A stretch of DNA of 42,328 nt from an uncultured Faecalibacterium sp. GTDB taxonomy: Bacteria; Bacillota; Clostridia; Oscillospirales; Ruminococcaceae. The stretch lies in the NCBI GenBank assembly GCA_964511805.1, contig CAZEIG010000001.1, positions 1 through 42,328 on the forward strand. The letters are read 5' to 3'. The translations under genes were made by a program, and so were the position numbers. The notes under the pieces are model-generated. The model ran no database searches. It was not told the DNA's origin and worked only from the letters and a program-made list of their open reading frames with translations. The stretch's first letter is position 1. The number at the start of each line of letters is the position of its first letter. Positions 1,296 through 25,413 of the stretch are shown here, one piece after another.

Positions 1296-1313
1296 AATGC
1301 AAAGGTGAGCGAC

Positions 1314-1922
1314 ATGCAGAACAAGATCCTCTTATATATCCACGGCAAGGGCGGCAGCGCCCAGGAGGCGGAGCAGTACCGAAAGAACTGCCCCGGCTTT
1401 GAGGTAGCCGGCGTCGATTACGACGGCAGTTTCCCATGGACGGCGCGGCCGACGATCCAGGCGGCCTGTCTGAAGGCGGAGAAAACATTTGACCAGGTAT
1501 GGGTCCTTGCCAACAGCATCGGGGCTTACTTCGCGATGGACGCCCTGCAGAGCCGTGCGGTCCACAAAGCGCTCTTCATCTCCCCGGTGCTGGACATGGA
1601 GAGTCTCATCCTCGACATGATGTCTTGGGCGGTCGTATCGGAAGATGCGCTGCGCGCCGAGGGCGAGATTCCCACCCCTTTCGGGGAGACGCTGTCCTGG
1701 GATTACCTCTGCTTTGTCCGGGACAACCCCATCCGCTGGAACGTCCCGACCGAAATCCTCTATGCCGGACAGGACAACCTGACCTCCCGGCAGACGGTGG
1801 ACGCTTTCCTCGCCAGCCATCCCCGCGCGGGCCTCACCGTGATGGAAGGGGGCGAGCACTGGTTCCACACCGAAGCGCAGCTGACTTTTCTGGATGGGTG
1901 GATGCAGCAAGCAATACAGTGA
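1314..1922 (+). CDS. Alpha/beta hydrolase (YqiA-like esterase)
   Basis: IHGKGGS, nucleophile elbow ANSIG, GQD and GEHWFH; ATG 1314 follows AAGGTGA (GTG 1305 is an alternative start). Confidence 0.8.
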   Translation: MQNKILLYIHGKGGSAQEAEQYRKNCPGFEVAGVDYDGSFPWTARPTIQAACLKAEKTFDQVWVLANSIGAYFAMDALQSRAVHKALFISPVLDMESLILDMMSWAVVSEDALRAEGEIPTPFGETLSWDYLCFVRDNPIRWNVPTEILYAGQDNLTSRQTVDAFLASHPRAGLTVMEGGEHWFHTEAQLTFLDGWMQQAIQ

Positions 1923-1968
1923 AAGCTGTATCCAGCAGAGAATGACCATGACAGAGAGGACGGCAATT

Positions 1969-2379
1969 ATGACTTCTATGGAAATCGTGAAATATTTCTA
2001 TGAAACCATTGTTTCGGAAAACCGGATGGACGAGCTTCCCGATTTTATATCACCGGAATGCTGTGTGAACGACGGCGGCCGCCTGCTCCATATAGGCGTA
2101 GAAGGAATGGCAGAGCATATCGCCATGACCAAGCAGACCTATCCCGATTATGCCATCAAGGTCACGCGGCAGTTCTGCGACGGGGAATATATCGTTACCG
2201 AGTTCATCATGGAGGGCACCCATGAAGGGGAGTGGATCGGGATCAAACCGACCCACAAAAAACTGAAATTTACTGGCGTCGACATCGACCGGGTGATGGA
2301 TGGAAAAATCGTAGAGCACGGCGGCGCCGTCAATACCTTTCAGACGCTGCTGGAAGAAAAGCTGATCCGGCCGGTATAG
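1969..2379 (+). CDS. SnoaL-like ester cyclase
   Basis: GTHEGEWIGIKPTHKK and DRVMDGKIVEH signatures; GAGAGGA RBS before ATG 1969. Confidence 0.85.
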   Translation: MTSMEIVKYFYETIVSENRMDELPDFISPECCVNDGGRLLHIGVEGMAEHIAMTKQTYPDYAIKVTRQFCDGEYIVTEFIMEGTHEGEWIGIKPTHKKLKFTGVDIDRVMDGKIVEHGGAVNTFQTLLEEKLIRPV

Positions 2380-2406
2380 ACAGAAGCAAATACCGAGAGG
2401 GAAGAT

Positions 2407-2895
2407 ATGACAACAGATAAAACAAAGCTTCAAATCGCCCTTCTTCAAGTTACCCCCGGCGGGGCGTTGGAGGAAAATCTGGAAAAGGGCATTGCCTGCT
2501 GCCGGAAGGCCTGGGCAATGGGGGTAGACATCGTCCTCTTTTCTGAAATGTGGAGCAACGGCTACCGTATCGACGGCCGCCCCGCTGACCAATGGACCGC
2601 CGACGCCATCCCGGCGGACGGGGCGTTTGTCCTGGCTTTCGGCGCACTGGCAAAAGAGCTGGAAATGGCCGTCGGGGTGGCCTATACCCCGGCGTCGGAT
2701 GGCTCCCGCGACACCTGCATCCTGCAGGCCGGCGGGGAAGAGGGGATCTATATCGCTTCCCTGGACCTGGCCCAGCTTCGCGCCTACCGTGCCTGCGAGG
2801 TGCACGGTAACGCCTACCGACATCCGCGGAAGTATAGCCTGCTGACCCGGCCCGGGATCGAAGCGCCCTTCATCCGGGATTACTACCGCGCATAA
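2407..2895 (+). pseudogene. Carbon-nitrogen hydrolase with a large in-frame internal deletion
   Basis: Nitrilase N-terminus (IALLQ...LFSEMW) is joined near 2674-2680 to the C-terminus (GEEGIYIASLDL..LR); the segments carrying catalytic Lys and Cys are absent; only 162 aa. Confidence 0.75.
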
Positions 2896-2909
2896 AATCG
2901 AGGGAAATT

Positions 2910-4082
2910 ATGTCGATCTATCTGGACGAAAAGAACCCATCCAAACACAAGCCGTTTCAGGACGCCTCGCCCGATGTGGTGGACTATGTTCGCTATCTGG
3001 AAGTCATCGCGGGGAAGAGCGCCAACACGGCCTTCAATTACTACTGCGACCTGCGGAATTTCAGCCGCTTTATGAAGCAGCGCCGCGGCCTGGTGCCCGA
3101 GGATACCCCCACGCAGGAGATCGACCCCAAAGGTCTGGACACGGCTTTCTGGGCCAGCGTGACCAAGGAGGATATCTACGAATACCTCTACTTTCTGAAC
3201 CAGACCTGCGGCAACAAGAAGTCCTCGACAGCCCGGCGGCTGGCCAGCCTTCACGGCTTCTATGACTATATGGTCAATCATGCCAGCCGCCTGGAGCAAG
3301 ACCCCACCGTGGCGGTCAAGCCGCCCAAACAGGACAAAGTCCTGCCCAAGTACCTGACGGCCGACCAAGCTGTGGAGCTGATGGAAGCGACCCGCACCGG
3401 CAGCGACTTCCCCGAGCGGGACTACTGCATGGTGGTCCTGTTCCTGAACTGCGGGATGCGTCTGGCCGAGCTGGTGGGGATGAACCTGGAGGACATCGAC
3501 CTGAAAGGGCGGCAGATCCGTCTTTTCGGGAAGGGGCACAAGGAGCGGATCGTCTATCTGAACGATGCCTGCGTCGAAGCGCTGGACCGTTATCTTCAAA
3601 AGCGGGGCAGCGTCGAAGGGCTCTCGCCCAAGGAGCGGGCGGTCTTTATCACCCGCCGGCGGAAGGAACGGATCTCCAACCGGCGGGTGGAGCAGCTCGT
3701 CACTGGTGCCATGAAGGCCGCCGGTCTGAAGGGCTTCTCGACCCACAAGCTGCGGCATACCGCGGCCACCCTGATGTACCAGACCGGGAATGTGGATGTC
3801 CTGACCCTGAAAGAGTTGCTGGGCCACAGCAGCGTCGGCACCACCCAGATCTATACCCACTTGCAGGATACCCAGGTGCGCGCCGCCATCGAGGCCAATC
3901 CCTTGGGCACGTCCCGGCAGGGCAGGCAGGCCGCAGAAGCCGCCGCAGAAACGGAACCTGCGGCCGCACCTCTGCCGGAAAAGCCGGAGGAACTGGCAGG
4001 GGAGGGCACAGGGGAGCCGCTGCCCGACATCCTGCCCACTTTGGACGAGCTGGGGGAAGCGGCTCCGCCGGAGCTTTCCTGA
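2910..4082 (+). CDS. xerC: XerC/XerD-family tyrosine recombinase
   Basis: Complete catalytic set: GMRLAEL, GKGHKER, HKLRH, LGHSS, TTQIYTH; N-terminal SAM-like core-binding domain (ARRLASLHGFY); C versus D assignment is nominal. Confidence 0.9.
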   Translation: MSIYLDEKNPSKHKPFQDASPDVVDYVRYLEVIAGKSANTAFNYYCDLRNFSRFMKQRRGLVPEDTPTQEIDPKGLDTAFWASVTKEDIYEYLYFLNQTCGNKKSSTARRLASLHGFYDYMVNHASRLEQDPTVAVKPPKQDKVLPKYLTADQAVELMEATRTGSDFPERDYCMVVLFLNCGMRLAELVGMNLEDIDLKGRQIRLFGKGHKERIVYLNDACVEALDRYLQKRGSVEGLSPKERAVFITRRRKERISNRRVEQLVTGAMKAAGLKGFSTHKLRHTAATLMYQTGNVDVLTLKELLGHSSVGTTQIYTHLQDTQVRAAIEANPLGTSRQGRQAAEAAAETEPAAAPLPEKPEELAGEGTGEPLPDILPTLDELGEAAPPELS

Positions 4083-4101
4083 ACGGAGGTAAAATGCAGC
4101 A

Positions 4102-4884
4102 ATGGAACAGCTTCAAAATGTGCCTTTCGGCAATGTGATGGGTATGGTTTTCTCTCTGGCGGTGGCCTTTGGGCTGCCGGCCGGGCTCTTTCTCTACCTG
4201 TGGCGGAAAAAGAAGGCAAGCCCCCTCAGTTTTGTGGTGGGGATGGCCGTCTTTGTCCTCTTTGCGCTGGTGCTGGAAAGCTCGGTCCATTCCGTCGTTT
4301 TCAGCCTGACCGGCACCCTGCTCACCGGCAATCTCTTCCTGTACGCTCTGTATGGTGCCTTGATGGCCGCCGCCTTTGAGGAGACGGGGCGTTATCTTGC
4401 CTTCCGCTTCCTCTTGCGAAACCGCCTCACCCGGGAAAACGCCCTGATGTACGGCGCGGGCCACGGCGGCGTCGAGGCGATGGTCCTGCTGGGCATTACA
4501 TCCATCAACAACCTGGCCAATTCCGTCCTGGTGAACAACGGCTCAATGACAGGCGTCCTCGCCACGCTGGACGAAACCACCCGGCAGACCGTGACCGCCA
4601 ACCTGTCCACCCTCTGGGAAACGCCCGCCTACCTCTTTTTCATAGCCGGCTTTGAGCGGATCGTTGCCGTCTGTCTGCACGTTGCGCTGTCGGTCCTGGT
4701 CTACCGCGCCGTCAGGGACGGGAAGGCCCGCTGGTACTGGGCCGCCTTTGGCGCCCATTTCGCGGTGGATTTTGCGGCGGTGCTCCTGCCCAATGTCTCG
4801 ATCTTTTTCACCGAGGCTGCGTTTGTCCTTATGACAGCCGCCGCCGTCTGGTATGCCGCTAAGGTCTACCGGGAAACAGAATAA
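4102..4884 (+). CDS. YhfC-family glutamic intramembrane protease
   Basis: Multiple hydrophobic helices; FEETGRY, GAGHGGVE and ERxxAxxxH motifs. Confidence 0.85.
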   Translation: MEQLQNVPFGNVMGMVFSLAVAFGLPAGLFLYLWRKKKASPLSFVVGMAVFVLFALVLESSVHSVVFSLTGTLLTGNLFLYALYGALMAAAFEETGRYLAFRFLLRNRLTRENALMYGAGHGGVEAMVLLGITSINNLANSVLVNNGSMTGVLATLDETTRQTVTANLSTLWETPAYLFFIAGFERIVAVCLHVALSVLVYRAVRDGKARWYWAAFGAHFAVDFAAVLLPNVSIFFTEAAFVLMTAAAVWYAAKVYRETE

Positions 4885-4906
4885 AACGCTGAAAGGAGTT
4901 TTTGCA

Positions 4907-5467
4907 ATGACAGAGACCTGTATAGTCAACGGCTGCGCCTACACCCTCCGCAAGCTGCTGGGGAAAGGCAAGGGCGGCTATTCTTACCTCGCGGACGACG
5001 GGGAGGGCAGGGAAGTGGTGGTCAAACAGATCCACCACGAACCCTGTGACTACTACCAGTTCGGCAACAAGATCGAGGCCGAACTGTCCGACTATAGGCG
5101 ACTGTCGGCCATCGGGATCGCCATGCCCAAGATGCTCGACATCGACCTGGTCGCCGAGCGGATCGTAAAGGAGTACATCGCCGGGGAGACGGTATACCAG
5201 CTCGTCCTGCAGGACAAGCTGCCGGACATCTGCCTGGATCAGATGCGGGCCATGTGCTGCCTGCTCTACCCGGCCAATACCAACATCGACTATTTCCCCA
5301 CCAACTTTATCTTGCAGGACGGTATTCTATATTACGTGGACTACGAGTGCAACGACTACTACGAGTGCAACGACTACATGGAAGAATGGAACTTTGAAAA
5401 CTGGGGTATCAAATACTGGTCCAAAACGCCAGAATTTTTGGCGTATGCAGAAGAACATAAGTCGTGA
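4907..5467 (+). CDS. Small protein-kinase-like-fold protein
   Basis: Gly-rich GKGKGGYSY, VVVK, catalytic-loop-like NIDYFPTNF, VDYE; AAAGGAG RBS before ATG 4907. Confidence 0.7.
   Translation: MTETCIVNGCAYTLRKLLGKGKGGYSYLADDGEGREVVVKQIHHEPCDYYQFGNKIEAELSDYRRLSAIGIAMPKMLDIDLVAERIVKEYIAGETVYQLVLQDKLPDICLDQMRAMCCLLYPANTNIDYFPTNFILQDGILYYVDYECNDYYECNDYMEEWNFENWGIKYWSKTPEFLAYAEEHKS
5342..5377 (+). repeat. Perfect 18-nt tandem duplication
   Basis: TACGAGTGCAACGACTAC x2, giving YECNDY-YECNDY. Confidence 0.95.
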
Positions 5468-5471
5468 GGCC

Positions 5472-5549
5472 ATCATCGGCTTCGTGGATACCGATGTTGA
5501 GCTGTTGACCGGTAGCATCCGCTACACGTCGATGAAGTATACAAGATAG
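5472..5549 (+). pseudogene. 3' remnant of a GNAT acetyltransferase gene
   Basis: Translates IIGFVDTDVELLTGSIRYTSMKYTR*, resembling the GF.DT..E....GIR(Y/F)TPM tail of Firmicutes GNATs (recalled pattern); no start codon. Confidence 0.5.
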
Positions 5550-5560
5550 GAGGCACAGAC

Positions 5561-5776
5561 ATGAAAAACACCAATACCTGTCCCAAATGCGGCGGCCATG
5601 AGATCGTCAGAGTGCCCGGCAAAGCCGGGGCCTATGGTTCGGGTAATTATGTCCCGCTGGGCTGGTCGATCTTTACCACCGCGCCGGTCCATCGGTATGT
5701 CTGCTGCAGCTGCGGCTATGTAGAAGAATGGGTGGACCGGGAAGATGTTAACAAAATCAAAGAAAAATACCGATGA
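5561..5776 (+). CDS. Small zinc-ribbon protein
   Basis: CPKC...CCSCGYVEEW; AGGAGG RBS. Confidence 0.8.
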   Translation: MKNTNTCPKCGGHEIVRVPGKAGAYGSGNYVPLGWSIFTTAPVHRYVCCSCGYVEEWVDREDVNKIKEKYR

Positions 5777-5805
5777 AACGTTTGAAGAAATGGAGGTGAA
5801 TTGTC

Positions 5806-6222
5806 ATGACGGTTTCGAAAATGCACGCGGTCCTTCCGGCAGACGTCTGGAGAGTGTGGGATGTGGTCACCGATGTCAGGTGTTACCCCGACTGGCGCAG
5901 CGGACTAAGCCGGGTCGAGGTGCAGGACGAGGCCGTGTTTGTAGAGTACACCCAGAACGGGTACGCCACAAAATTTACCATCACAGAGACCAATCCCGGC
6001 AGGCGCTGGGCGTTCACCATAGACAACAGCCATATGACGACGGGCCGATGGGTGGGAATTTTCCGTCAGGTGGGGGCTGGGACGGTAGTTACCTTCGCAG
6101 AATATGTGACGGCCAAAAAATTATTCCTGCGGCCGTTTGTGAAACTGTACCTGAAAAGGCAGCAGGCGGTGTTTCTGTCTGACTTGAAAAAGGCACTGTA
6201 TGATGGCGAGGTAGAACTTTGA
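5806..6222 (+). CDS. SRPBCC/polyketide-cyclase family protein
   Basis: VWDVVTD..YPDWRSGL and VVTFAE; GGAGGTG RBS. Confidence 0.8.
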   Translation: MTVSKMHAVLPADVWRVWDVVTDVRCYPDWRSGLSRVEVQDEAVFVEYTQNGYATKFTITETNPGRRWAFTIDNSHMTTGRWVGIFRQVGAGTVVTFAEYVTAKKLFLRPFVKLYLKRQQAVFLSDLKKALYDGEVEL

Positions 6223-6327: not shown

Positions 6328-6741
6328 ATGAAGAAAATCGGTCTGGCGGGCGGGATCGGCCCGGCGTCCACGGTGGAATATTATCTGGGCCTTACCAAAA
6401 ATCGCCTTGTCGAGCATGGATGCTATCCGGAAATCGTGAGAACACAACGAATCCATTATAAATAAAGCGTATAAAGCGTGATTACGTCAAATTAACGGAT
6501 ATAGAGACGCTTGGCGGGCTGATTTATCCCAATCTTGAAAATGGCATCGTTGTACCAGACGACAAAGAAAAAATCATCTCTATGGCGAATCGATACATTG
6601 CCAGCAAAGCGGCGACGGATTGATCCTTGGCTGTACTGAACTGCCGCTTACAGTCAAACAAGAAGATATCTGCTTGCCGGTATTGAGCACAACACAAATT
6701 TATTTTATATTGATGCGATTGAACGATTTGCAACTGCATGA
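6328..6741 (+). pseudogene. Aspartate/glutamate racemase family pseudogene
   Basis: MKKIGLAGGIGPASTVEYY (stop at 6463-6465), then IYPNLENG, ILGCTELPL and YIDAIERFATA* fragments separated by frameshifts; central part missing. Confidence 0.85.
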
Positions 6742-6843
6742 ATGGACGTCTAAGGCCGTGGAAGCCCAAAACGCATACACAGCATACACAAAGGACCTCG
6801 AAAGGCCTGAAATGGCCCGAGAGGGCTTTTTTCTCTCCCCTAA

Positions 6844-6871
6844 ACTTCGTATAACGTGTATTATACGAAAT
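6844..6871. other. dif: dif-like site-specific recombination site (11-6-11)
   Basis: ACTTCGTATAA-CGTGTA-TTATACGAAAT; arms 6842-6854 and 6861-6873 are 12/13 inverted; intergenic, at the +/- gene convergence point, ~2.8 kb from a Xer gene. Confidence 0.8.
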
Positions 6872-6961
6872 TTGCGTATAGAGAAAATAAGTCCCCCTCT
6901 TCTCTCCCAAACTCTCAAATCATTATTCCAACCAGCCGTTCCAGCGTCGAACCAGATCAGC

Positions 6962-7039: not shown

Positions 7040-7918
7040 TCAGTCCATATCGCAGATGGCGCCGTAGCATTCCGGGCGGCGATCCCTGAACAGGCCCCAT
7101 TCCATCCGCGCCTGCCGGATGGCCGCAAAGTCATAGCTTGCCGTTAGGACTGCATCCCCATCCCGCCCTGCTTCTGTCAGGATCGCCCCTGTCTCGTCAG
7201 TCATAAAGCTGCTGCCGTAAAACCGCAGTGCGCTCTGCTGGCCACCGTTTTCCCTGCACGGCGTTACCACCTCGGTGCCATAGCGGTTTGCCGCAACGAC
7301 CGGCAGGACGTTGGCGGCGGCGTGGCCCTGCATGGTCCGTTGCCAGTGACCGACGCTGTCCACCGCCAGGATCGGCTCGCTGCCGATGGCTGTTGGATAC
7401 AAGATGAGATCGGCGCCTCCCAGTGTCAGGCAGCGCGCCGTCTCCGGGAACCACTGGTCCCAGCAGATCCCAACCCCTACCCGGCCGTACTGGGTATCAA
7501 ACACCCGGAACCCCGTGTTGCCGGGGGTAAAATAAAACTTCTCTTGGTAATAGTGATCATCAGGGATGTGAGTCTTACGGTAGATGCCGAGGAGGCGGCC
7601 ATCGTCCAGCATGGCGACGCTGTTGAACAGCCGTGTGCCGTCTTTTTCGTAAAAGCTGACCGGTATCACCAGATCCAGCTCGTGGCTGACCGTCAGAAAA
7701 CGCTGCACCGCTGGATTTTCATCTGCCGGCATGGCATAGTCATAGTATTCGTACCGTCGTTCCTGGCAGAAATACGGACGTTCAAACAGCTCAGGCAGAA
7801 GGACGATATGAGCCCCTTGGGAGGCGGCCTGGCGTACCAGCGTCTCGGCGTTGGCCAGATTTTGGGCCGGGTCGGCGCAGCAGGTCATCTGGATGGCTGC
7901 AACCACGGTCTGAGGCAT
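7040..7918 (-). CDS. aguB: N-carbamoylputrescine amidase
   Basis: LPELFERPYFCQ, YRKTHIPDD, YQEKFYF, GICWDQWFPE; adjacent to aguA. Confidence 0.95.
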   Translation of the reverse strand: MPQTVVAAIQMTCCADPAQNLANAETLVRQAASQGAHIVLLPELFERPYFCQERRYEYYDYAMPADENPAVQRFLTVSHELDLVIPVSFYEKDGTRLFNSVAMLDDGRLLGIYRKTHIPDDHYYQEKFYFTPGNTGFRVFDTQYGRVGVGICWDQWFPETARCLTLGGADLILYPTAIGSEPILAVDSVGHWQRTMQGHAAANVLPVVAANRYGTEVVTPCRENGGQQSALRFYGSSFMTDETGAILTEAGRDGDAVLTASYDFAAIRQARMEWGLFRDRRPECYGAICDMD

Positions 7919-7944
7919 TGCTTTCCCCTCCTTGTTATACCTTA

Positions 7945-9021
7945 TTACAATGGTATCTGCTGTGTGATGCAGTGGATGTTTCCCCCGCCTTGCAAAATTT
8001 CACGAGCCGGCAGGCCGATCACCTGCCGCTCCGGGCAGAGCTCTTGCAGGATGGCGCAGGCGCGGGCGTCGCACGCAGCATTTTCGCCACCGAACTGCGG
8101 CACCAGGACTGCATCGTTGGTAAAGTAAAAATTGACGTAACTGGCCGCCAGCCGTTCACCCGGCTCCCGGACGTCCTCACCGGGCGCGAATTCGTAGGCG
8201 GCGCAATCCGCCTCACTGCAAAGGATCGGATGATCCGGGATGGGCAGCTTGTGGACCGTCAGCGGGCGGCCCTTGGCATCGGTGGCACCTTCCAGATAAG
8301 CGAGATTCGCCGCCGAAAGTGGGTACTGCGGGTCGCTCTCGTCGTCGGTCCAAGCCAGAACGACCTCGCCCGGCCCCACAAAGGCACAGACGTTGTCCAC
8401 GTGCTCGTTGGTCTCGTCATTGTAGATGCCGTGCGGCAGCCAGAGGATCTTCTGCACACCGAGGCGGCGGCAGAGTTCCTCTTCGATTTCCTCGCGCGTC
8501 ATTGACGGATTCCGCCCAGCCGACAGCAGACAGCTTTCGGTGACAAGGGCTGTTCCCTCCCCGTCGGTATGGATGCTGCCGCCCTCCAGCACGAAGGGGG
8601 CCACGTCCTCCCAGGGCAGGCCCAGCGCATCACAGAAAGCCCCGGCGACGGCATCGTCCTTCTGCCAATCGGCGTAAAGGCCGTCCACTTCGCCGCCCCA
8701 TGCGTTGAATCGCCAGCTGATCCCCTTCAGCGCGCCGTCCTCGTTTTGGACGAAGGTGGGTCCCACATCCCGCGCCCATGCGTCGTCCGATTCGATGCAG
8801 AGCAGATGGACGCGGTCGAGGCCGGCAACGGCCTCGCGGGCCTGTTCCAGTTGATCAGGGCCGGCCAGAAGATAGAGGTCCTCGCTCTCGGTGATAGCCT
8901 TGAACACCCGGACAAAGGCCGCCTGTGCGGCGCCGGGGTCTTTTCCCCAACTGCCGGGCCGGACGGGCCAGATCATTAGGGTGGCGCGGTGGGGCTGGTA
9001 TTCAGCCGGCATTCTGTACAT
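7945..9021 (-). CDS. aguA: Agmatine deiminase
   Basis: MPAEY, DDAWARD, FNAWGG, LEGGSI, GGGNIHCITQQ. Confidence 0.96.
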   Translation of the reverse strand: MYRMPAEYQPHRATLMIWPVRPGSWGKDPGAAQAAFVRVFKAITESEDLYLLAGPDQLEQAREAVAGLDRVHLLCIESDDAWARDVGPTFVQNEDGALKGISWRFNAWGGEVDGLYADWQKDDAVAGAFCDALGLPWEDVAPFVLEGGSIHTDGEGTALVTESCLLSAGRNPSMTREEIEEELCRRLGVQKILWLPHGIYNDETNEHVDNVCAFVGPGEVVLAWTDDESDPQYPLSAANLAYLEGATDAKGRPLTVHKLPIPDHPILCSEADCAAYEFAPGEDVREPGERLAASYVNFYFTNDAVLVPQFGGENAACDARACAILQELCPERQVIGLPAREILQGGGNIHCITQQIPL

Positions 9022-9045
9022 GGGCAGCGTTCTCCTTTTATCCCG

Positions 9046-10197
9046 TCAGGACAGACGGGTCTTGAAATCCTGATAGCCGAAGCGGCGGACCAGTTCACAG
9101 CTCCCGTCCAGACGGCGGAGGGCGATGTCCGGCAGCGGCATACCGTTGAAGGTGTTATTCTTAACCATCGAATAGATCGCCATATCGCCGAAAACAAGCC
9201 GGTCGCCAACCTGTGGGCAGGCGTCGAAGCTGTATTCTCCGATGACGTCCCCCGCCAGACAGGTCCGGGATGCCAGACGGCAGGTGCAGGCCTTTTCACC
9301 CGGCAGGCCGCTGCCGTAGAGGGGCGGCCGGTAGGGCATTTCCAGGACATCGGGCATATGGCAGGCCGCAGAGGTGTCCAAGATCAGGACGGGCATATCG
9401 GACGCCTGCACAATGTCCAGCACCGTGGTGATGAGGGTGCCAGCGTTGAGGGCGATGGCCTCCCCTGGTTCCAGATAGACGGTGAGACCGTACTTTTCCC
9501 GGATGGAGAGGATGAGCGATTCGAGCGCCTGGATGTCGTAGCCGGGCCGGGTGATGTGATGCCCGCCGCCCAGATTGAGCCACTTCAGTCCCGGCAGAAA
9601 AGCGCCGAACTTCTCTTCAAAGGCCACAAAGGTCTCGACGAGGGGGGCGGCATCCTGCTCGCACAAGGTGTGAAAGTGAAGGCCCTCGACACCCCGCGGC
9701 ATGGTGTCCGGCAAGTTTTTGCGGCGGATGCCGAGACGGCTGCCGGGGGCACAGGGGTCGTAGATGGCGTGACCCTCCTGGGTGGAGTGCTCGGGGTTGA
9801 CCCGCAGGCCGACGCTCACGCCGGCCGCCTCCCAAGCGGGGCGGTGGGCCTCCAGCTGGGCTAGCGAGTTAAAGCTGATGTGGTCGCAGATGGACACCAG
9901 CTGCCCCATTTCTTCGGGGGTGTAGGCCGGGCAGAAAACATGATTTTCCCGGCCGGGCATTTCCTCGTGGGCAAGCCGCGCTTCAAACAGGCCACTGGCC
10001 GTTGCCCCTGCCAGGTACCGCCCGATCAGCGGGTAGACCCGGAACATCGAAAACGCCTTCTGCGCCAGCAGGATATGGCAGCCGGTGCGCTGCTGGACCC
10101 CCTGCAGGATTTCCAGGTTGTGGACCAGCGCGGCTTCATCCACCAGATAGACCGGGGTGCGCAGCCCCGGCTCTTTGTTTGTCAGCCGGTCCATCAC
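9046..10197 (-). CDS. nspC: Carboxy(nor)spermidine decarboxylase
   Basis: LAQKAFS, YDPCAPGSRLG, HFHTLCE, LGGGHHIT, CHMPDVLEMPY, CLAGD, FNGMPLP; ATG 10194 is an alternative start. Confidence 0.95.
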   Translation of the reverse strand: MMDRLTNKEPGLRTPVYLVDEAALVHNLEILQGVQQRTGCHILLAQKAFSMFRVYPLIGRYLAGATASGLFEARLAHEEMPGRENHVFCPAYTPEEMGQLVSICDHISFNSLAQLEAHRPAWEAAGVSVGLRVNPEHSTQEGHAIYDPCAPGSRLGIRRKNLPDTMPRGVEGLHFHTLCEQDAAPLVETFVAFEEKFGAFLPGLKWLNLGGGHHITRPGYDIQALESLILSIREKYGLTVYLEPGEAIALNAGTLITTVLDIVQASDMPVLILDTSAACHMPDVLEMPYRPPLYGSGLPGEKACTCRLASRTCLAGDVIGEYSFDACPQVGDRLVFGDMAIYSMVKNNTFNGMPLPDIALRRLDGSCELVRRFGYQDFKTRLS

Positions 10198-11456
10198 TCC
10201 ACCGTGGCAGGGTGCTCATCCACCACCCAAGGCAGACCGTACTGGTCCAGCATCTCCATAAAAGGATCGGGGTCCATCTCCTCCAGGTTGAAGACGCCGG
10301 GTTTCCGCCACTGGCCGTTAGCCACCAGGGCCGTGCCGATCATGGCCGGGACGCCGGTGGTGTAGCTGATGGCCTGGCTGCCCAGTTCCTTATAGCATTC
10401 CTGGTGGTCGCATACATTATAAATATAGATGGTCTTTTCCTTGCCGCCCTTGACGCCGGTGAAGATGCAGCCGATGTTGGTCTTGCCGACGGTGCGGGGA
10501 CCGAGGGAGGCCGGGTCGGGCAGCAGCGCCTTGAGGAACTGGATAGGAACGATCTCGTGGCCCTCAAACTGGACCGGGCTGGTGGAGAGCATCCCCACGT
10601 TCTCGAGACACTTCATGTGGGTCAGGTAGCTCTGGCCAAAGGTCATGAAGAAGCGGATCCTCTTGACGCCGGGGACATTCTTGGCCAGGCTCTCGATCTC
10701 CTCGTGGTGAAGCAGATACATATCCTTTTTGCCCACCTGGGGGAAATCGTATTCCCGCTTGATCTCCATCGGCTTGGTCTCCACCCAGTGGCCGTCCTCC
10801 CAGTAGCTGCCGTTGGCCGAGACCTCCCGCAGATTGATCTCAGGGTTGAAGTTGGTGGCGAAGGGATAGCCGTGGTCGCCGCCGTTGCAGTCCAGGATGT
10901 CGATGGTGTGGATCTCATCAAAGTAGTGCTTGAGGGCGTAGGCGGTAAAGACGCTGGTGACGCCCGGGTCGAAGCCGGAGCCGAGGATGGCGGTCAGGCC
11001 GGCGTCCTCGTACTTCTTGCGGTAAGCCCACTGCCAGCTGTAATCGAAGTAGGCGGTGAAACCCTCCTCCTTGCAGCGCTTCTCATAGGCGGCCCGCCAG
11101 GCGAGGTCGTCGGTATTCTCGGGTTCATAGTTGGCGGTGTCGACATAGTGGACGCCGCAGTCCAGGCAGGCGTCCATGATGGTCAGATCCTGGTATGGCA
11201 GGGCGACGTTCAGGACCAGGTCGGGCCGGTATTCCAGGATGACCCGCTTGACGTCCTCGGCGTCGTCGGCATTGACGGTGGCGGTGGTGATCTTGACAGG
11301 CATACCGGCGGCCTCCAGCCTGGCTTTGAGGGCGTCGCACTTGGAAACGGTTCGGCTGGCGATGCAAAGCTCAGGGAAGGTCTCGTGGTTCTGGCAGCAC
11401 TTCTGGATGGCGACGGAGGCAACGCCGCCGCAGCCGATGACAAGCAGTTTGCTCAT
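10194..11456 (-). CDS. Carboxyspermidine dehydrogenase (saccharopine dehydrogenase family)
   Basis: IGCGGVA, ALPYQDLTIMDAC, GFDPGVT, FATNFNPEINLRE, SQAISYTTGVPA; ATG 11456 follows AAAGGAG. Confidence 0.93.
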   Translation of the reverse strand: MSKLLVIGCGGVASVAIQKCCQNHETFPELCIASRTVSKCDALKARLEAAGMPVKITTATVNADDAEDVKRVILEYRPDLVLNVALPYQDLTIMDACLDCGVHYVDTANYEPENTDDLAWRAAYEKRCKEEGFTAYFDYSWQWAYRKKYEDAGLTAILGSGFDPGVTSVFTAYALKHYFDEIHTIDILDCNGGDHGYPFATNFNPEINLREVSANGSYWEDGHWVETKPMEIKREYDFPQVGKKDMYLLHHEEIESLAKNVPGVKRIRFFMTFGQSYLTHMKCLENVGMLSTSPVQFEGHEIVPIQFLKALLPDPASLGPRTVGKTNIGCIFTGVKGGKEKTIYIYNVCDHQECYKELGSQAISYTTGVPAMIGTALVANGQWRKPGVFNLEEMDPDPFMEMLDQYGLPWVVDEHPATVE

Positions 11457-11606
11457 GATAAGGCTCCTTTCGTTAGGACAATTCCGTCCCGGCCGGCTGA
11501 CATGTGTGGACGGCCGGGACACATACAGGGAAATTTTTGGGCGAGAGTGTGCGAACTGCGCAACAGGTAGAAATGGGTCCCCCCTGGAGCCCCCTGGAGC
11601 GAAGCT

Positions 11607-12470
11607 TTAGTCCTCTTCCTCTTTCAGGAGGTCCTCGACGTAGCGCGGCAGCATGAAGGCGCCGCGGTGCAGATGTGTGGTATAATACCAGGTCTTGATC
11701 CCCCGCTTGTTCCAGCGCTTGGGGTCAAAGTCCTTGAGGGGGTGGTATTTTTTGCTGGCAAAACCGAACAGCCAGTACCCCGCCGGGCAGGTCGGGATGT
11801 GGGCCTGGTACACCCGGCTGATGGGGAAAGAACGGTAGGCCCGCTTATGCATGGCGCGGCAGCTCTCTTCATCCTCATCAAAAAAGGGACTGCCGTGCTG
11901 GTAGACCATGATCCCGTCGTCGTGGAGGGCTTTGTAGCAGCTGCCGTAGAATTCCTTGGTGAACAGCCCTGCCGCATGGCCCAGCGGGTCGGTACAGTCG
12001 TTAATGATGAGGTCGTATTCGTCCTCTTTGCTGCGCAGAAAGCGCAGGCCGTCCTCATAGTAGACACGGACGCGGATGTCATCCAGACCACAGGCGTTGT
12101 CCGGGAAGAACTTCCGGCAGACGTCCACGAACATTTTGTCCGGCTCCACCACGTCGATGACTTCGATCTCCTGGTAATAGGACAGTTCACGGGCGACGCC
12201 GCCGTCCCCGCCGCCGATGACCAGCACCCGCTTGACATCAGGGTGGACGGCCATCGGGACATGGACAATCATCTCGTCGTAGGTGAATTCATCTTTTTCC
12301 GAGAAGATGACGCTGCCGTCCGAAGTCAGGAACCGCCCGAACTCCGGCGAATCAAAGACGTCGATCCGCTGGAAGTCGCTGGTGCCGCTGTAGAGCTGCT
12401 GTTCCACCCGGATGCAGGTCTTGACGTTGTTGGTGTGCATTTCACCGAACCAGTAATCCATTTCCTGCAA
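11607..12470 (-). CDS. speE: Polyamine aminopropyltransferase (spermidine synthase family)
   Basis: VLVIGGGDGG, INDCTDP, YWLFGFASK; TTG start follows AAAGGAGG. Confidence 0.9.
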   Translation of the reverse strand: MQEMDYWFGEMHTNNVKTCIRVEQQLYSGTSDFQRIDVFDSPEFGRFLTSDGSVIFSEKDEFTYDEMIVHVPMAVHPDVKRVLVIGGGDGGVARELSYYQEIEVIDVVEPDKMFVDVCRKFFPDNACGLDDIRVRVYYEDGLRFLRSKEDEYDLIINDCTDPLGHAAGLFTKEFYGSCYKALHDDGIMVYQHGSPFFDEDEESCRAMHKRAYRSFPISRVYQAHIPTCPAGYWLFGFASKKYHPLKDFDPKRWNKRGIKTWYYTTHLHRGAFMLPRYVEDLLKEEED

Positions 12471-12484
12471 GATGATCCCTCCTT

Positions 12485-13933
12485 TCAGCTCAAAACGTTC
12501 AATTCAGAGATGTCCTCACTGGCCGGGCCCTGCATCGAGCAACCCTTGGCCTTGGCGAACTCAATGTAGTCGATGATCTCCTGAGTGATGACCTCGCCGG
12601 GGGCCAGGATGGGGATGCCCGGCGGGTAGCACATGACGAACTCAGTGCAGATCCGCCCGGCCGTCTCCCGCAGGGGCAGGCTCTCTTTGGGCGAATAGAA
12701 GGCCTGCTGGGGGGTGGCCGCCACCTGCGGGGTGATGTACTCCGCCGTGAACAGGTCGCTCCGCGGTTTGGAATAGAGCCGCCGGATGTCAGCCAGGGCG
12801 CCCACCAGACGCTCAATGTCCTGGATGCGGTCCCCGATCGAAATATAGGCCAGGATGTTGGATAGGTCGCCGAATTCGATCTGGATGTCGTACTCGTCCC
12901 GCAGCAGGTCGTAGACCTCGATGCCGGTCAGTCCGATGCCGCGGGTATTGACGGCCAGCTTGGTGACGTCGAAGTCAAAGATGCTACCGCCGTTGATCAG
13001 CTCCGACCCGAAGGCGTAATAGCCGCCGATGGCGTTGATCTCCCGCCGGGCGTACTCCGCCATATCGATCACCTTGGAAAAGCTTGCCCTGCCCCGCATG
13101 GCAAGGTTGCGGCGGCTGATGTCCAGGCTGGACATCAGCAGGTAGGAGGCGCTGGTGGTCTGGGTCAGGTTGATGATGTTGCTGACATAGCCCGCGTTGA
13201 CCTCCGGCCCGCAGAGCAACAGCGAGCTCTGGGTCAGGCTGCCGCCCGACTTGTGCATTGAGACGGCGGCCATATCGGCCCCGGCCGCCATCCCGCTGAG
13301 GGGCAGGCTTGGCCCGAAGTAGAGGTGGGTGCCGTGGGCTTCATCCACCAGGGCCAGCATCCCATGGGCGTGGGCCAGCTCCACCAGACTGCGCAGGTCG
13401 GAGCAGATGCCGTAATAGGTGGGATTATTGATGAAGATGGCCACCGCATCGGAGTTGGCCTCGATGGCTGCGCGGACGTCTTCTACTTCCATCCCCAGCG
13501 GGATGCCCAGGTCTACGTCCACTTTGGGGTCGATGTAGACCGGCACCGCCCCGCAGAGCACCAGGGCATTGATGGCGCTCTTGTGGACGTTGCGGGGCAG
13601 GATGATCTTATCCCCCGGCTTGCAGGCCGTTAGCACCATGCCCTGGACGCTGCTGGTGGTGCCGCCTACCATCAGGAAGGCGTGGGCCGCGCCGAAGGCG
13701 TCGGCGGCCAGTTCTTCCGCCTCCTTGATGACAGAAACCGGATGGCACAGATTGTCCAGCGGCTTCATCGAGTTGACGTCGATCCCGACGCAACGTTCCC
13801 CCAGCAGCTCTACCAGCTCCGGGTTGCCGCGGCCCCGCTTATGCCCCGGCACATCGAAGGGCACCACCCTCTGCCGGCGGAATTTTTCCAGCGCCTCATA
13901 GATGGGCGCGCGCTTTTGACGTTCCCGGTCCAA
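12485..13933 (-). CDS. speA: Orn/Lys/Arg decarboxylase (AAT-fold), probable arginine decarboxylase
   Basis: FDVPGHKRG, PRNVHKS, VDEAHG, PLP-Lys SMHKS, YPPGIP; probable TTG start at 13933 after GGAGAGAGGG; substrate inferred from aguAB context. Confidence 0.88.
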   Translation of the reverse strand: MDRERQKRAPIYEALEKFRRQRVVPFDVPGHKRGRGNPELVELLGERCVGIDVNSMKPLDNLCHPVSVIKEAEELAADAFGAAHAFLMVGGTTSSVQGMVLTACKPGDKIILPRNVHKSAINALVLCGAVPVYIDPKVDVDLGIPLGMEVEDVRAAIEANSDAVAIFINNPTYYGICSDLRSLVELAHAHGMLALVDEAHGTHLYFGPSLPLSGMAAGADMAAVSMHKSGGSLTQSSLLLCGPEVNAGYVSNIINLTQTTSASYLLMSSLDISRRNLAMRGRASFSKVIDMAEYARREINAIGGYYAFGSELINGGSIFDFDVTKLAVNTRGIGLTGIEVYDLLRDEYDIQIEFGDLSNILAYISIGDRIQDIERLVGALADIRRLYSKPRSDLFTAEYITPQVAATPQQAFYSPKESLPLRETAGRICTEFVMCYPPGIPILAPGEVITQEIIDYIEFAKAKGCSMQGPASEDISELNVLS

Positions 13934-13976
13934 AAAACATCCCTCTCTCCTGTTTTTGATCCCAAAAGCGCCGCAC

Positions 13977-14011
13977 AAAAAAGGCAGCGCACCCTTGCGG
14001 GTACACTGCCT
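13977..14011 (-). terminator. Attenuator terminator in the polyamine operon leader
   Basis: AGGCAGTGTACCC-GCAA-GGGTGCGCTGCCT-TTTTT on the - strand, between promoter and RBS. Confidence 0.85.
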
Positions 14012-14345
14012 GTGAGAACAAATCATAGAGAAGCGGCCTGGCTGCCCTTTGTCAGAGGGCAGCGTCCTGCAACGCCCAGCCATACCGGGAGTAACTTCAG
14101 CAAATAGATCAAAGGACTGTTCTGCTGCTCTTATTGACGTTTCACAAGTGGTGTGCATCCGCACGGAGTTATAAAAAGTGACCAACTTATAAAATTTCCG
14201 GGCAATCTACCCGTTCAATAATTGTTGTGACGCTTTACGTCACACGCGGCAGCGGCCAGCCCTGTCCGATGAGCTTTAGGCATCCAAAAGGACGCCCGGC
14301 CTAATCTATTTGCGGGCGGACAAACGACAGCCCGCTTAGGCTCTA
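14012..14345 (-). ncRNA. Large structured cis-regulatory leader RNA, probably the ldcC RNA motif
   Basis: Many nested stems (TGTGACG/CGTCACA, TTATTGA/TCAATAA, GCTGCCCT/AGGGCAGC, GGCGTCC/GGATGCC) and a 10-nt long-range complement; position upstream of a polyamine decarboxylase in a Firmicute fits the described ldcC motif context; not confirmed by covariance search. Confidence 0.6.
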
Positions 14346-24177: not shown

Positions 24178-25413
24178 TTATGCCGCGGCAACCACGTTGC
24201 CCTCGGCGTCCAGGGTCTCGAACCACTGAACCTGGCCGTCTACGAAGGTGTTGAAGACGATCTGCTTTTCAGGGTCGCCGTTCTCGTCCAAGGTGAAGGT
24301 GCCGCCCACGCCAGTGAAGGTCATCCCGGTCATCCCTTCCACCAGGCTGGCGGTGTCGGATGCGCCGGCGTTGATGGCCGCCTGGTAGATCATGTAGATG
24401 GCGTCATAGTACAGGGAAGCGCAGGCGTTCAGGCTCTCGGTGCCGTAGAGCTCGGTGTACTTGGTGACGAAGTTGACGACTGCGGGCGAGGTGTCCTCGC
24501 TGGAGTAGTGGTTGGTGAAGTAACAGTTCTCAAACTGGGCCTCGAGGCCGGTGGTGTCCGAGCTGTCCCAGCCGTCACCGCCCATGATGGCGCCGGTGAA
24601 GCCGTTGGAACGAGCCTGGCTGACCAGCAGCGGGACGGTATCCTGGAAGCAGGGGTAGTAGAGGAACTCAGCGCCGGAGGCAACCACCTGGGCTACCTGG
24701 GAAGAAAAGTCTGTGTCGGTGGTGGTGCACTGACCCTCATAGACCACCTCGATGCCCAGCGCCTCGCAGTTCTCGATGAAAGCGTCCTTCAGACCGTTGG
24801 AATAGTCATCATCGTTGGCGTAGAGGACGGCAACCGTGCTGTACCCCTGGGATTCGACAAAGAGGGCGGCCATACGGCCCTGATAGGGGTCGATGAAGCA
24901 GTCGCGGAAGATGGTGGGGCCGGTCAGGGTGACGCTGGTGTTGGTGGCGCCGGTGGCCAGCAGCAGCATGTTGTCAGTTGCGGCCTGCTCGGCCATCGGC
25001 AGAGTAACCGAGGAGAAGAAGCTGCCCACCAGCGCCTCAGGGGCGTCCGACATCACCAGGTTGTAGGCGTTCATGGCCTGGCGGGCATCCTGGGCGTCGT
25101 CAGCGATCTGGCCGCCGTTGACGATCTCGATGGTGAACTCGCCGCCGCTGGAGTTGATCTCCTCCACAGCCATGTCAATGGCGTTCTGTGCGCCCTCGCC
25201 ATAGATGGCCGAGCCACCGGTCATCGGGCCGATGACGCCGATCCGGATGACGTAATCCTCCTTGCTGGCGGCGGAGGCTGTGCTCGAGGCGGTGGACGCT
25301 GCCGTCGAAGTCGTACCGCCCTGCTGGGTGGAGGACGAACAGCCGCTCATCAGGCCGGCCGTCACGGCCGCTGCCATGGTCAACGATAAGATCCTGTTTC
25401 GTGTTTTCATCAT
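24178..25413 (-). CDS. Liv-type ABC substrate-binding lipoprotein
   Basis: Signal peptide with lipobox LMSGC, Ser/Thr/Ala linker, IGVIGPMTG, FIDPYQG, GGDGWD; ATG at 25413 or 25410 follows GGGGAGGG. Confidence 0.9.
   Translation of the reverse strand: MMKTRNRILSLTMAAAVTAGLMSGCSSSTQQGGTTSTAASTASSTASAASKEDYVIRIGVIGPMTGGSAIYGEGAQNAIDMAVEEINSSGGEFTIEIVNGGQIADDAQDARQAMNAYNLVMSDAPEALVGSFFSSVTLPMAEQAATDNMLLLATGATNTSVTLTGPTIFRDCFIDPYQGRMAALFVESQGYSTVAVLYANDDDYSNGLKDAFIENCEALGIEVVYEGQCTTTDTDFSSQVAQVVASGAEFLYYPCFQDTVPLLVSQARSNGFTGAIMGGDGWDSSDTTGLEAQFENCYFTNHYSSEDTSPAVVNFVTKYTELYGTESLNACASLYYDAIYMIYQAAINAGASDTASLVEGMTGMTFTGVGGTFTLDENGDPEKQIVFNTFVDGQVQWFETLDAEGNVVAAA

Follow-up and report, generated by a model that had tools for sequence, protein, structure and literature searches.

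A probable dif site in a Faecalibacterium-group bacterium and the single Xer recombinase predicted to serve it

The window analysed here, a stretch of 42,328 nucleotides from an uncultured Faecalibacterium sp., contains a near-palindrome of 34 bases, found at 6841-6874 as a preliminary description had claimed. It raises the question of whether this is the chromosomal dimer-resolution site (dif), which enzyme acts upon it, and what its likeness to loxP means. The preliminary description took it to be the terminus site of a single-recombinase system together with the Xer-type gene nearby, and considered a lox-like nature to be the special trait of that system. The first part is supported by the single copy, the genus-wide conservation, the linkage to the only Xer-grade gene and the skew switch in closed relatives, but the second part could not be sustained. 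With a probability of about 0.88, the 28-bp core (Table 1) would be the dif of a Faecalibacterium-group bacterium, served by the single Xer encoded beside it.

Table 1. Positions of the features of the window, and of further family-type cores in other records.
Feature	Position	Strand	Remark
dif-like core, 11-6-11	6844-6871	none	Conservation confined to these 28 bp
Left arm of core	6844-6854		
Central region of core	6855-6860		
Right arm of core	6861-6871		
One-sided G-rich flank, AGGGGAG	6835-6841	-	2 bp from core, reading away from core
Terminator-like hairpin with T-run	6814-6827	+	Directly beside flank; pattern match only
Xer-type tyrosine recombinase, 390 aa	2910-4082	+	Only Xer-grade gene in assembly
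Small accessory genes around xer	1305-6222		Alpha/beta-hydrolase-like, SnoaL-like, truncated carbon-nitrogen hydrolase, YhfC, kinase-like, polyketide cyclase
Zinc-ribbon ORF, 71 aa	5561-5776		Among the accessory genes around xer
Broken gene, aspartate/glutamate racemase-like	6329-6745	+	By eye from translation
Polyamine operon	7040-14185	-	Directly after site; decarboxylase, speE, carboxy(nor)spermidine synthase and decarboxylase, aguA, aguB
Extra family-type cores	L310:93, L311:362, L312:84, L314:3864, L317:3250, L318:1310		Several at contig starts

The conserved unit has the 11-6-11 geometry that the preliminary description proposed, and a non-coding site of about 28 bp with two 11-bp inverted arms around 6 bp is what is expected of an Xer/dif site. 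It lies between converging gene ends, with no gene start adjoining it, and the gene-orientation switch reported for this point is real: genes to the left are all on the plus strand (6,000 bp against 0), while to the right 25,143 bp are on the minus strand and 2,145 bp on the plus. The symmetry had been overstated, since the arms, given as 12/13 symmetric, match at 10 of 11 positions in the dif register and at 11 of 13 in the lox register, and twelve matches are reached only over 14 positions. Nor is the site symmetric in function, given its one-sided flank and the unequal conservation of its arms. The core is present once in the 1.85-Mb assembly, as had been predicted, and the runner-up differs at 9 of the 28 bases (6 of 22 when scored on the arms); for the 9-6-9 core, an order-2 Markov model expects about 3e-7 copies. 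The assembly is 82% complete, so a second copy of the site, or a second Xer, could be missing. Palindromes of the 11-6-11 type with at least 10 matched pairs occur at 158 places in the same assembly, so that symmetry alone is not rare, and it is conservation and position that set this site apart.

Within the genus, the core with its one-sided GGG flank was found in 82 of 91 genomes, including all 41 that are at least 90% complete, and a reversed-pattern control gave 0; the arms alone were matched in 22 of 24 same-genus genomes. Two identical copies of core and flank occurred in 2 of the 82 draft genomes and degenerate extras were few, as befits a site kept in one copy. Conservation near the xer orthologue, another expectation of the preliminary description, was seen in every one of the 20 genomes with both on one contig, at site-to-xer distances of 38-2,865 bp, the site being downstream of xer in 18 and upstream in 2; three other matching genomes include two without an xer match and one with xer on another contig. 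When relatives are aligned (22 rows, of which one odd row, L002, was mis-cut at a contig end), conservation ends at the 28-bp core, and the central 6 bp are constrained within the genus. A few genomes have extra copies with other central regions, and in two (G023, L315:4200; G011, L316:3086) a second, degenerate core comes after a DUF4363 gene, the same one in both, and precedes large ORFs without a Pfam match; in G023 it is 48 kb from the main site.

Among relatives the xer-to-site distance ranges from 0.5 to 2.9 kb, which suggests gene gain beside dif, and in the window it is about 2.8 kb. The interval around xer carries small accessory genes, and GC falls to 0.50 at 5-7 kb of the window. 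The racemase-like remnant retains its start, has a mid-gene deletion or frameshifts, and continues as a C-terminal piece ending about 100 bp before the site.

The preliminary description also expected the cumulative GC skew to invert at the site. This is not so in the window, where GC skew rises to the end, purine skew peaks near 25,000, and AT alone of the cumulative skews peaks near the site, at about 6,970; AT skew and gene direction are the two features that switch in the window itself. The genome has a C-rich coding strand (third-position skew -0.20), and while this explains why G is in excess over the minus-strand genes right of the site, it fails to do so for the plus-strand genes on the left. 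Skews and gene switch are not independent evidence, because the skews partly track gene direction. In two closed relatives, however, GC, AT and purine skew do peak close to the site. In two chromosomes that are closed and start at dnaA (G020 and G013), it lies 48.7% and 53.2% of the way round, and the tile containing it is the one where gene direction and the skews reverse. In G020, over 140 kb, the cumulative GC, AT and purine peaks are offset from the site by -117, -23 and -20 bp; in G013, over 280 kb, by -843, +47 and -21 bp. With five further closed or two-contig chromosomes added, the site, or the palindrome that takes its place, is 48-55% round from dnaA in all seven. The GC skew peak is 0.8-3.2 kb from the palindrome in four of these five (80 kb each), the exception being G116, at 15 kb. 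One more genome, G167, departs from this pattern: its xer stands at about 70% of the circle from dnaA, and the search near it gave no site.

A palindrome so often close to xer could instead be an operator only, through which the Xer or another regulator controls xer transcription, with dimers being resolved elsewhere. In 36 of 40 loci across the family the palindrome precedes xer by 20-750 bp, and the site of the streptococcal XerS system, difSL, was speculated to overlap the xerS promoter (Le Bourgeois 2007, PMC1914069). It is hard to reconcile with an operator that the site is downstream of xer in nearly all of the genus, that in the window it sits 2.8 kb away between converging gene ends, and that its 6-bp centre is constrained. 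In the relative G032, moreover, the palindrome is 7.9 kb upstream of xer and coincides to within 49 bp with the peak of AT and purine skew. An exclusive operator role is therefore considered very improbable, although a dual role, as dif and operator, is possible where the site does lie upstream of xer.

The recombinase has the two-domain build, core-binding and catalytic, of a conserved chromosomal tyrosine recombinase, with an intact set of catalytic residues (R184, K208, H279, R282, H306, Y315), all six of which are invariant in 58 aligned relatives. It falls below the cut-off of every family model: it scores 216 against 335 for XerC, 202 against 330 for XerD, 183 against 220 for XerA, and 136 bits against 267 for XerS, the last with the catalytic half only, so that it does not class as a XerS. 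Its best PDB matches, by sequence and by fold, are archaeal XerA. Of three trees, all quick searches with SH-aLRT support only and with XerH and XerL left out, two place it in a clostridial clade (98-99) that includes plasmid copies. This lies outside XerC/XerD and XerA and at a great distance from P1 Cre. This clade groups loosely with lone Peptostreptococcales Xers and XerS-family proteins (93 and 83), the latter represented by genomes passing the XerS cut-off rather than by Lactococcus itself. The recombinases of three other Faecalibacterium records (L177, L186, L190), which have the same site and flank, form one clade with that of the window (SH-aLRT 100). The genes of the window are of an Oscillospirales type, and with these records they are the ground for the names Faecalibacterium for the genus and Ruminococcaceae for the family.

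The hallmarks of XerC/XerD, a pair of paralogues and an asymmetric site that includes a XerD arm, were not found, and no gene passed the XerD cut-off in any of the five genus genomes tested. It could be argued that the dif is nevertheless recombined by two proteins, the Xer of the window and a divergent XerD-like partner missed by the searches. The arms are indeed unequally conserved, the one away from the flank reading TTCGTATAA in 79 of 84 exact matches and the flank-side arm being its exact complement in 22 of 84 (counted by eye), and true XerD persists in some related families. Against this, the runner-up to the XerD model in the closed chromosome G013 reaches 76 bits, compared with 198 for xer, the flank-side arm does not end in the XerD manner seen in ordinary dif predictions, and most family sites are symmetric at 11 of 11 positions; a hidden partner is considered very unlikely. 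In the other closed chromosome, G020, a further gene, XerA/integrase-like, is found some 105 kb away from the site; G013 has no such gene.

The pairing of palindrome and xer can be followed beyond the genus. An xer orthologue is present in 140 of 150 Ruminococcaceae genomes, and the family loci fetched for the palindrome count above were picked from these 140 for score or assembly quality, not at random. Their sites, obtained by a palindrome scan near xer, mostly have arms ATTTCGCTAAA. A XerD-like match at E<=1e-65 occurs in 11 of the 150 genomes, one of them over the cut-off. In other families, 8 of 15 loci have arms of the ATTATACAAAA type, and three of four tested have a true XerD, often close to xer. 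The one-enzyme claim is thus firm for the genus but is not carried over to those families, as several relatives there keep a true XerD. The helices expected to read the DNA (named by analogy with Cre; PMC7438526) vary together with the arms: helix J shows R-x-x-E/Q with TTCG arms and, for the most part, P-K-T-V-Q in the ACAAAA class, and helices B and D change stepwise towards Faecalibacterium. The relatives are not independent, so this covariation is to be taken as a lead.

Two patterns tried on the 150 family genomes were of little use. A degenerate pattern without the flank matched 34, with a control about as frequent and hence uninformative, and the family pattern at 3 mismatches matched 96 but also gave many control matches. 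Among the matches listed, extra near-perfect family-type cores with other central regions were noticed in G126, G164, G157, G059 and G055, and these could be traces of integration or mobile modules. One family genome has a pair of asymmetric XerC/D-type sites separated by 1.6 kb (G154:C80:616 and 2199), which resembles a plasmid dif module and may belong to a foreign contig.

Plasmids carry the same kind of recombinase, named 'tyrosine recombinase XerC' in RefSeq, and five of seven fetched copies have their own symmetric site just upstream, although two of the records with such a site may be chromosome pieces. Ruminococcus albus pRUMAL01, the Clostridium butyricum megaplasmid and C. acetobutylicum pSOL1 (L295:1470, L296:1212 and L297:1368) have the same Xer type with a symmetric 11-6-11 site just upstream, and the arms of the C. 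butyricum megaplasmid differ from the left arm of the window at one position. An exact family-type core was also found in 36 viral contigs (L369-L404), 33 of them without a recombinase match within 1.5 kb, and these are candidates for phages that use the host Xer. The flank accompanies only four of the 36 phage copies, two of which are pieces with an xer gene.

The likeness to loxP had been stated correctly, the 13-bp arms matching those of loxP at 11 and 10 of 13 positions; the loxP arms used were those printed in PMC2018622, which are identical in the P1-like site of the phage contig L167. Such arms could belong to a genuine lox-type site that some mobile element, P1-like or other, with a Cre-like recombinase has left behind or still uses, and P1-like phage contigs with Cre homologues (L141, L167) share the inner arms, while lower-GC accessory genes lie beside the site. 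But a search with P1 Cre itself, used also for the tree and the alignment, gave no homologue in the assembly (best tblastn E 0.11), and the neighbouring protein is 21% identical to Cre (E 0.003), which is the longest branch in the tree. Neither a Cre-type recombinase nor a conserved 13-8-13 site was found: the outer, lox-specific positions vary among relatives, and the second arm base is T in almost all of them (21 of 22 rows on the arm away from the flank), the loxP-like C being private to the window genome, as is the loxP-like base of the flank-side arm. Since site and xer also recur across the genus and family, and at the terminus, the conservation profile largely refutes the lox-type reading, and an origin from such an element is hardly credible.

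The same arms flank lone Xer-type genes elsewhere. A scan of species genomes for TTCGYATAA-N6-TTATRCGAA gave at least 120 stretches; of the matches listed (full flanks for 80), 42 have a recombinase-like match nearby, many of them weak, and the clearest are those closely followed by a lone Xer-type gene, in archaea, Patescibacteria, Chloroflexi and Peptostreptococcales. In ten of these records (L221, L227, L229, L231, L179, L182, L197, L204, L211 and L220) the lox-like symmetric site is directly upstream of a lone Xer-type gene, the hosts of such pairs being Peptostreptococcales, Patescibacteria, DPANN archaea, Methanocorpusculum and Chloroflexi, and these pairs are candidates for further single-enzyme dif systems. 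Lox-like cores with a further abutting arm, forming tandem half-sites, were seen in L185, L189, L209, L213, L237, L240 and L271, on Lachnospiraceae-type contigs. The lox-like core occurs in 56 viral stretches as well, 13 with a recombinase match and two with a Cre homologue, and an arm of the same form is the XerC-side arm of an ordinary dif prediction in Heliobacterium. In the protein, R258 and E261 align with R259 and E262 of Cre helix J, which read these bases (PMC7438526). The arms beside lone Xers, the XerC-side dif arm and this alignment together indicate that the loxP likeness is a shared family motif and not a link to Cre. As the family mostly has GCTAAA arms, Faecalibacterium would appear to have moved back towards the lox-like motif. 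Cre tolerates different spacers when they are identical in both sites and favours an inner TATA and an outer ATA (PMC2018622); the site keeps the inner TATA but has lost the outer ATA on both arms, and the odds that Cre would recombine two matched copies of it are put near even.

Among known systems, XerS/difSL of streptococci and lactococci (PMC1914069, PMC2965235) is likewise a single recombinase with a terminus site, gene linkage and an encoded FtsK. The site adjoins the recombinase gene in both, immediately upstream in most Ruminococcaceae, but in most Faecalibacterium it is downstream, and the 31-bp difSL has unequal arms, unlike the 28-bp core with its equal arms. XerL/dif of Legionellales (PMC9765430) provides a precedent for a symmetric one-enzyme dif, with perfect inverted arms that are also used by mobile elements. 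However, its arms have no homology to known Xer motifs, those of the window being XerC-like, and xerL is more than 400 kb from dif, whereas in this genus gene and site are linked; the likening of the two systems is one of sites and gene positions. Archaeal XerA/dif (PMC8371274, PMC5357621) also combines a single enzyme with an 11-6-11 site, and among the matches listed archaeal contigs have the same inner arms beside a lone Xer, but XerA forms a separate clade and archaea are without FtsK. The XerC/XerD-dif of E. coli (CodV/RipX in Bacillus) shares the 11-6-11 geometry and terminus position, and both arms of the window resemble the XerC-side arm of predicted dif sites; the differences are the lack of a XerD-type arm, of a second recombinase in the tested genus genomes, and the linkage of gene and site. 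With Cre/loxP of P1 the inner 8 bp of both arms are identical, but the outer ATA is not conserved, and the site is chromosomal, not that of a phage.

The single-enzyme systems XerS, XerH and XerA have been reviewed (PMC5357621), another study pools all in one Xer subgroup (PMC8138268), and about 500 recombinase/site pairs are reported in PMC10250229. No description of this site or family was found in the literature searched, from which subscription journals are largely missing. The largest dif survey (PMC3025954) covers, in its accessible part, 19 Clostridia, none from Ruminococcaceae, with no row for Faecalibacterium, Ruminococcus or Eubacterium, and its predictions for Clostridium failed or lay 137-174 degrees from the skew switch.

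The flank of the site is a candidate KOPS-like motif in non-permissive orientation. AGGGGAG lies on the leading strand 89:21 in tiles of the two closed chromosomes G020 and G013 (16:3 inside head-on genes), and 33:3 in five other genomes (13:0 in head-on genes), where it is the first-ranked 7-mer; the ratio is 26:3 in 400 kb of held-out tiles and 8:0 in the window, the flank copy excluded. In the assembly from which the window comes it is 7:1 in head-on genes but only 25:17 in co-oriented genes, and in a word ranking confined to Faecalibacterium it was outside the top 15. The skew of 81-90% is around the 90% criterion of PMC3384302, and the polarity fits a KOPS-like motif. E. coli KOPS (109:56) and Bacillus SRS (30:6 overall, 2:2 in head-on genes), tried as polar motifs, gave a poorer fit. 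In the tiles of the two closed chromosomes GCAGGGGA is more skewed than AGGGGAG (67:3, and 16:0 in head-on genes), which leaves room for a longer polar motif or for a second one such as Chi. FtsK-gamma is encoded in four of five genomes tested, and in the assembly of the window the FtsK motor is on a contig (C215) whose end cuts it.

In most family loci the flank points towards xer and in several it points the other way, so that it is not a ribosome-binding site. In the XerS system a non-permissive KOPS 10 bp from difSL lowers recombination, and asymmetry has been argued to be necessary for control (PMC2965235). By analogy, the flank may give the site a direction, but it could equally be bound by the recombinase or by another protein.

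Judged from XerS/difSL, XerH and XerL, the single Xer would likely bind both arms of the core, with two monomers on each site and four bringing together, at the septum, the two dif sites of a chromosome dimer, and would cut at the edges of the 6-bp centre, exchanging strands in two steps via a Holliday junction. With less confidence, FtsK/SpoIIIE, guided by AGGGGAG-type polar motifs, would deliver and activate this complex, and the near-symmetric site would owe its direction to the single reversed motif that lies at a fixed place next to one arm.

Faecalibacterium and its relatives are major gut commensals. The kind of system described is already known from XerS, XerH, XerA and XerL, which limits the surprise. 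A wider proposal is offered tentatively, and it is rather doubtful as a whole: that Ruminococcaceae use one Xer and a symmetric dif whose direction is written in the DNA and not in a second protein; that AGGGGAG serves to orient FtsK in this family, a single reversed copy 2 bp from one arm letting FtsK activate from one side only; that phages carry the flankless core to use the host enzyme outside that control; and that the Faecalibacterium enzyme re-evolved a loxP-like arm specificity. If this were true, a reversed AGGGGAG would do the job that the XerC/XerD pair does elsewhere. For practical purposes the site marks the terminus for genome assembly and is a candidate landing pad, and the arm and protein variants of the family form a natural series for specificity studies, possibly including new orthogonal recombinases. 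XerS has raised the question of how one enzyme acting on a symmetric site may obtain directionality and be coupled to cell division, and a polar motif fixed in reversed orientation is relevant to it.
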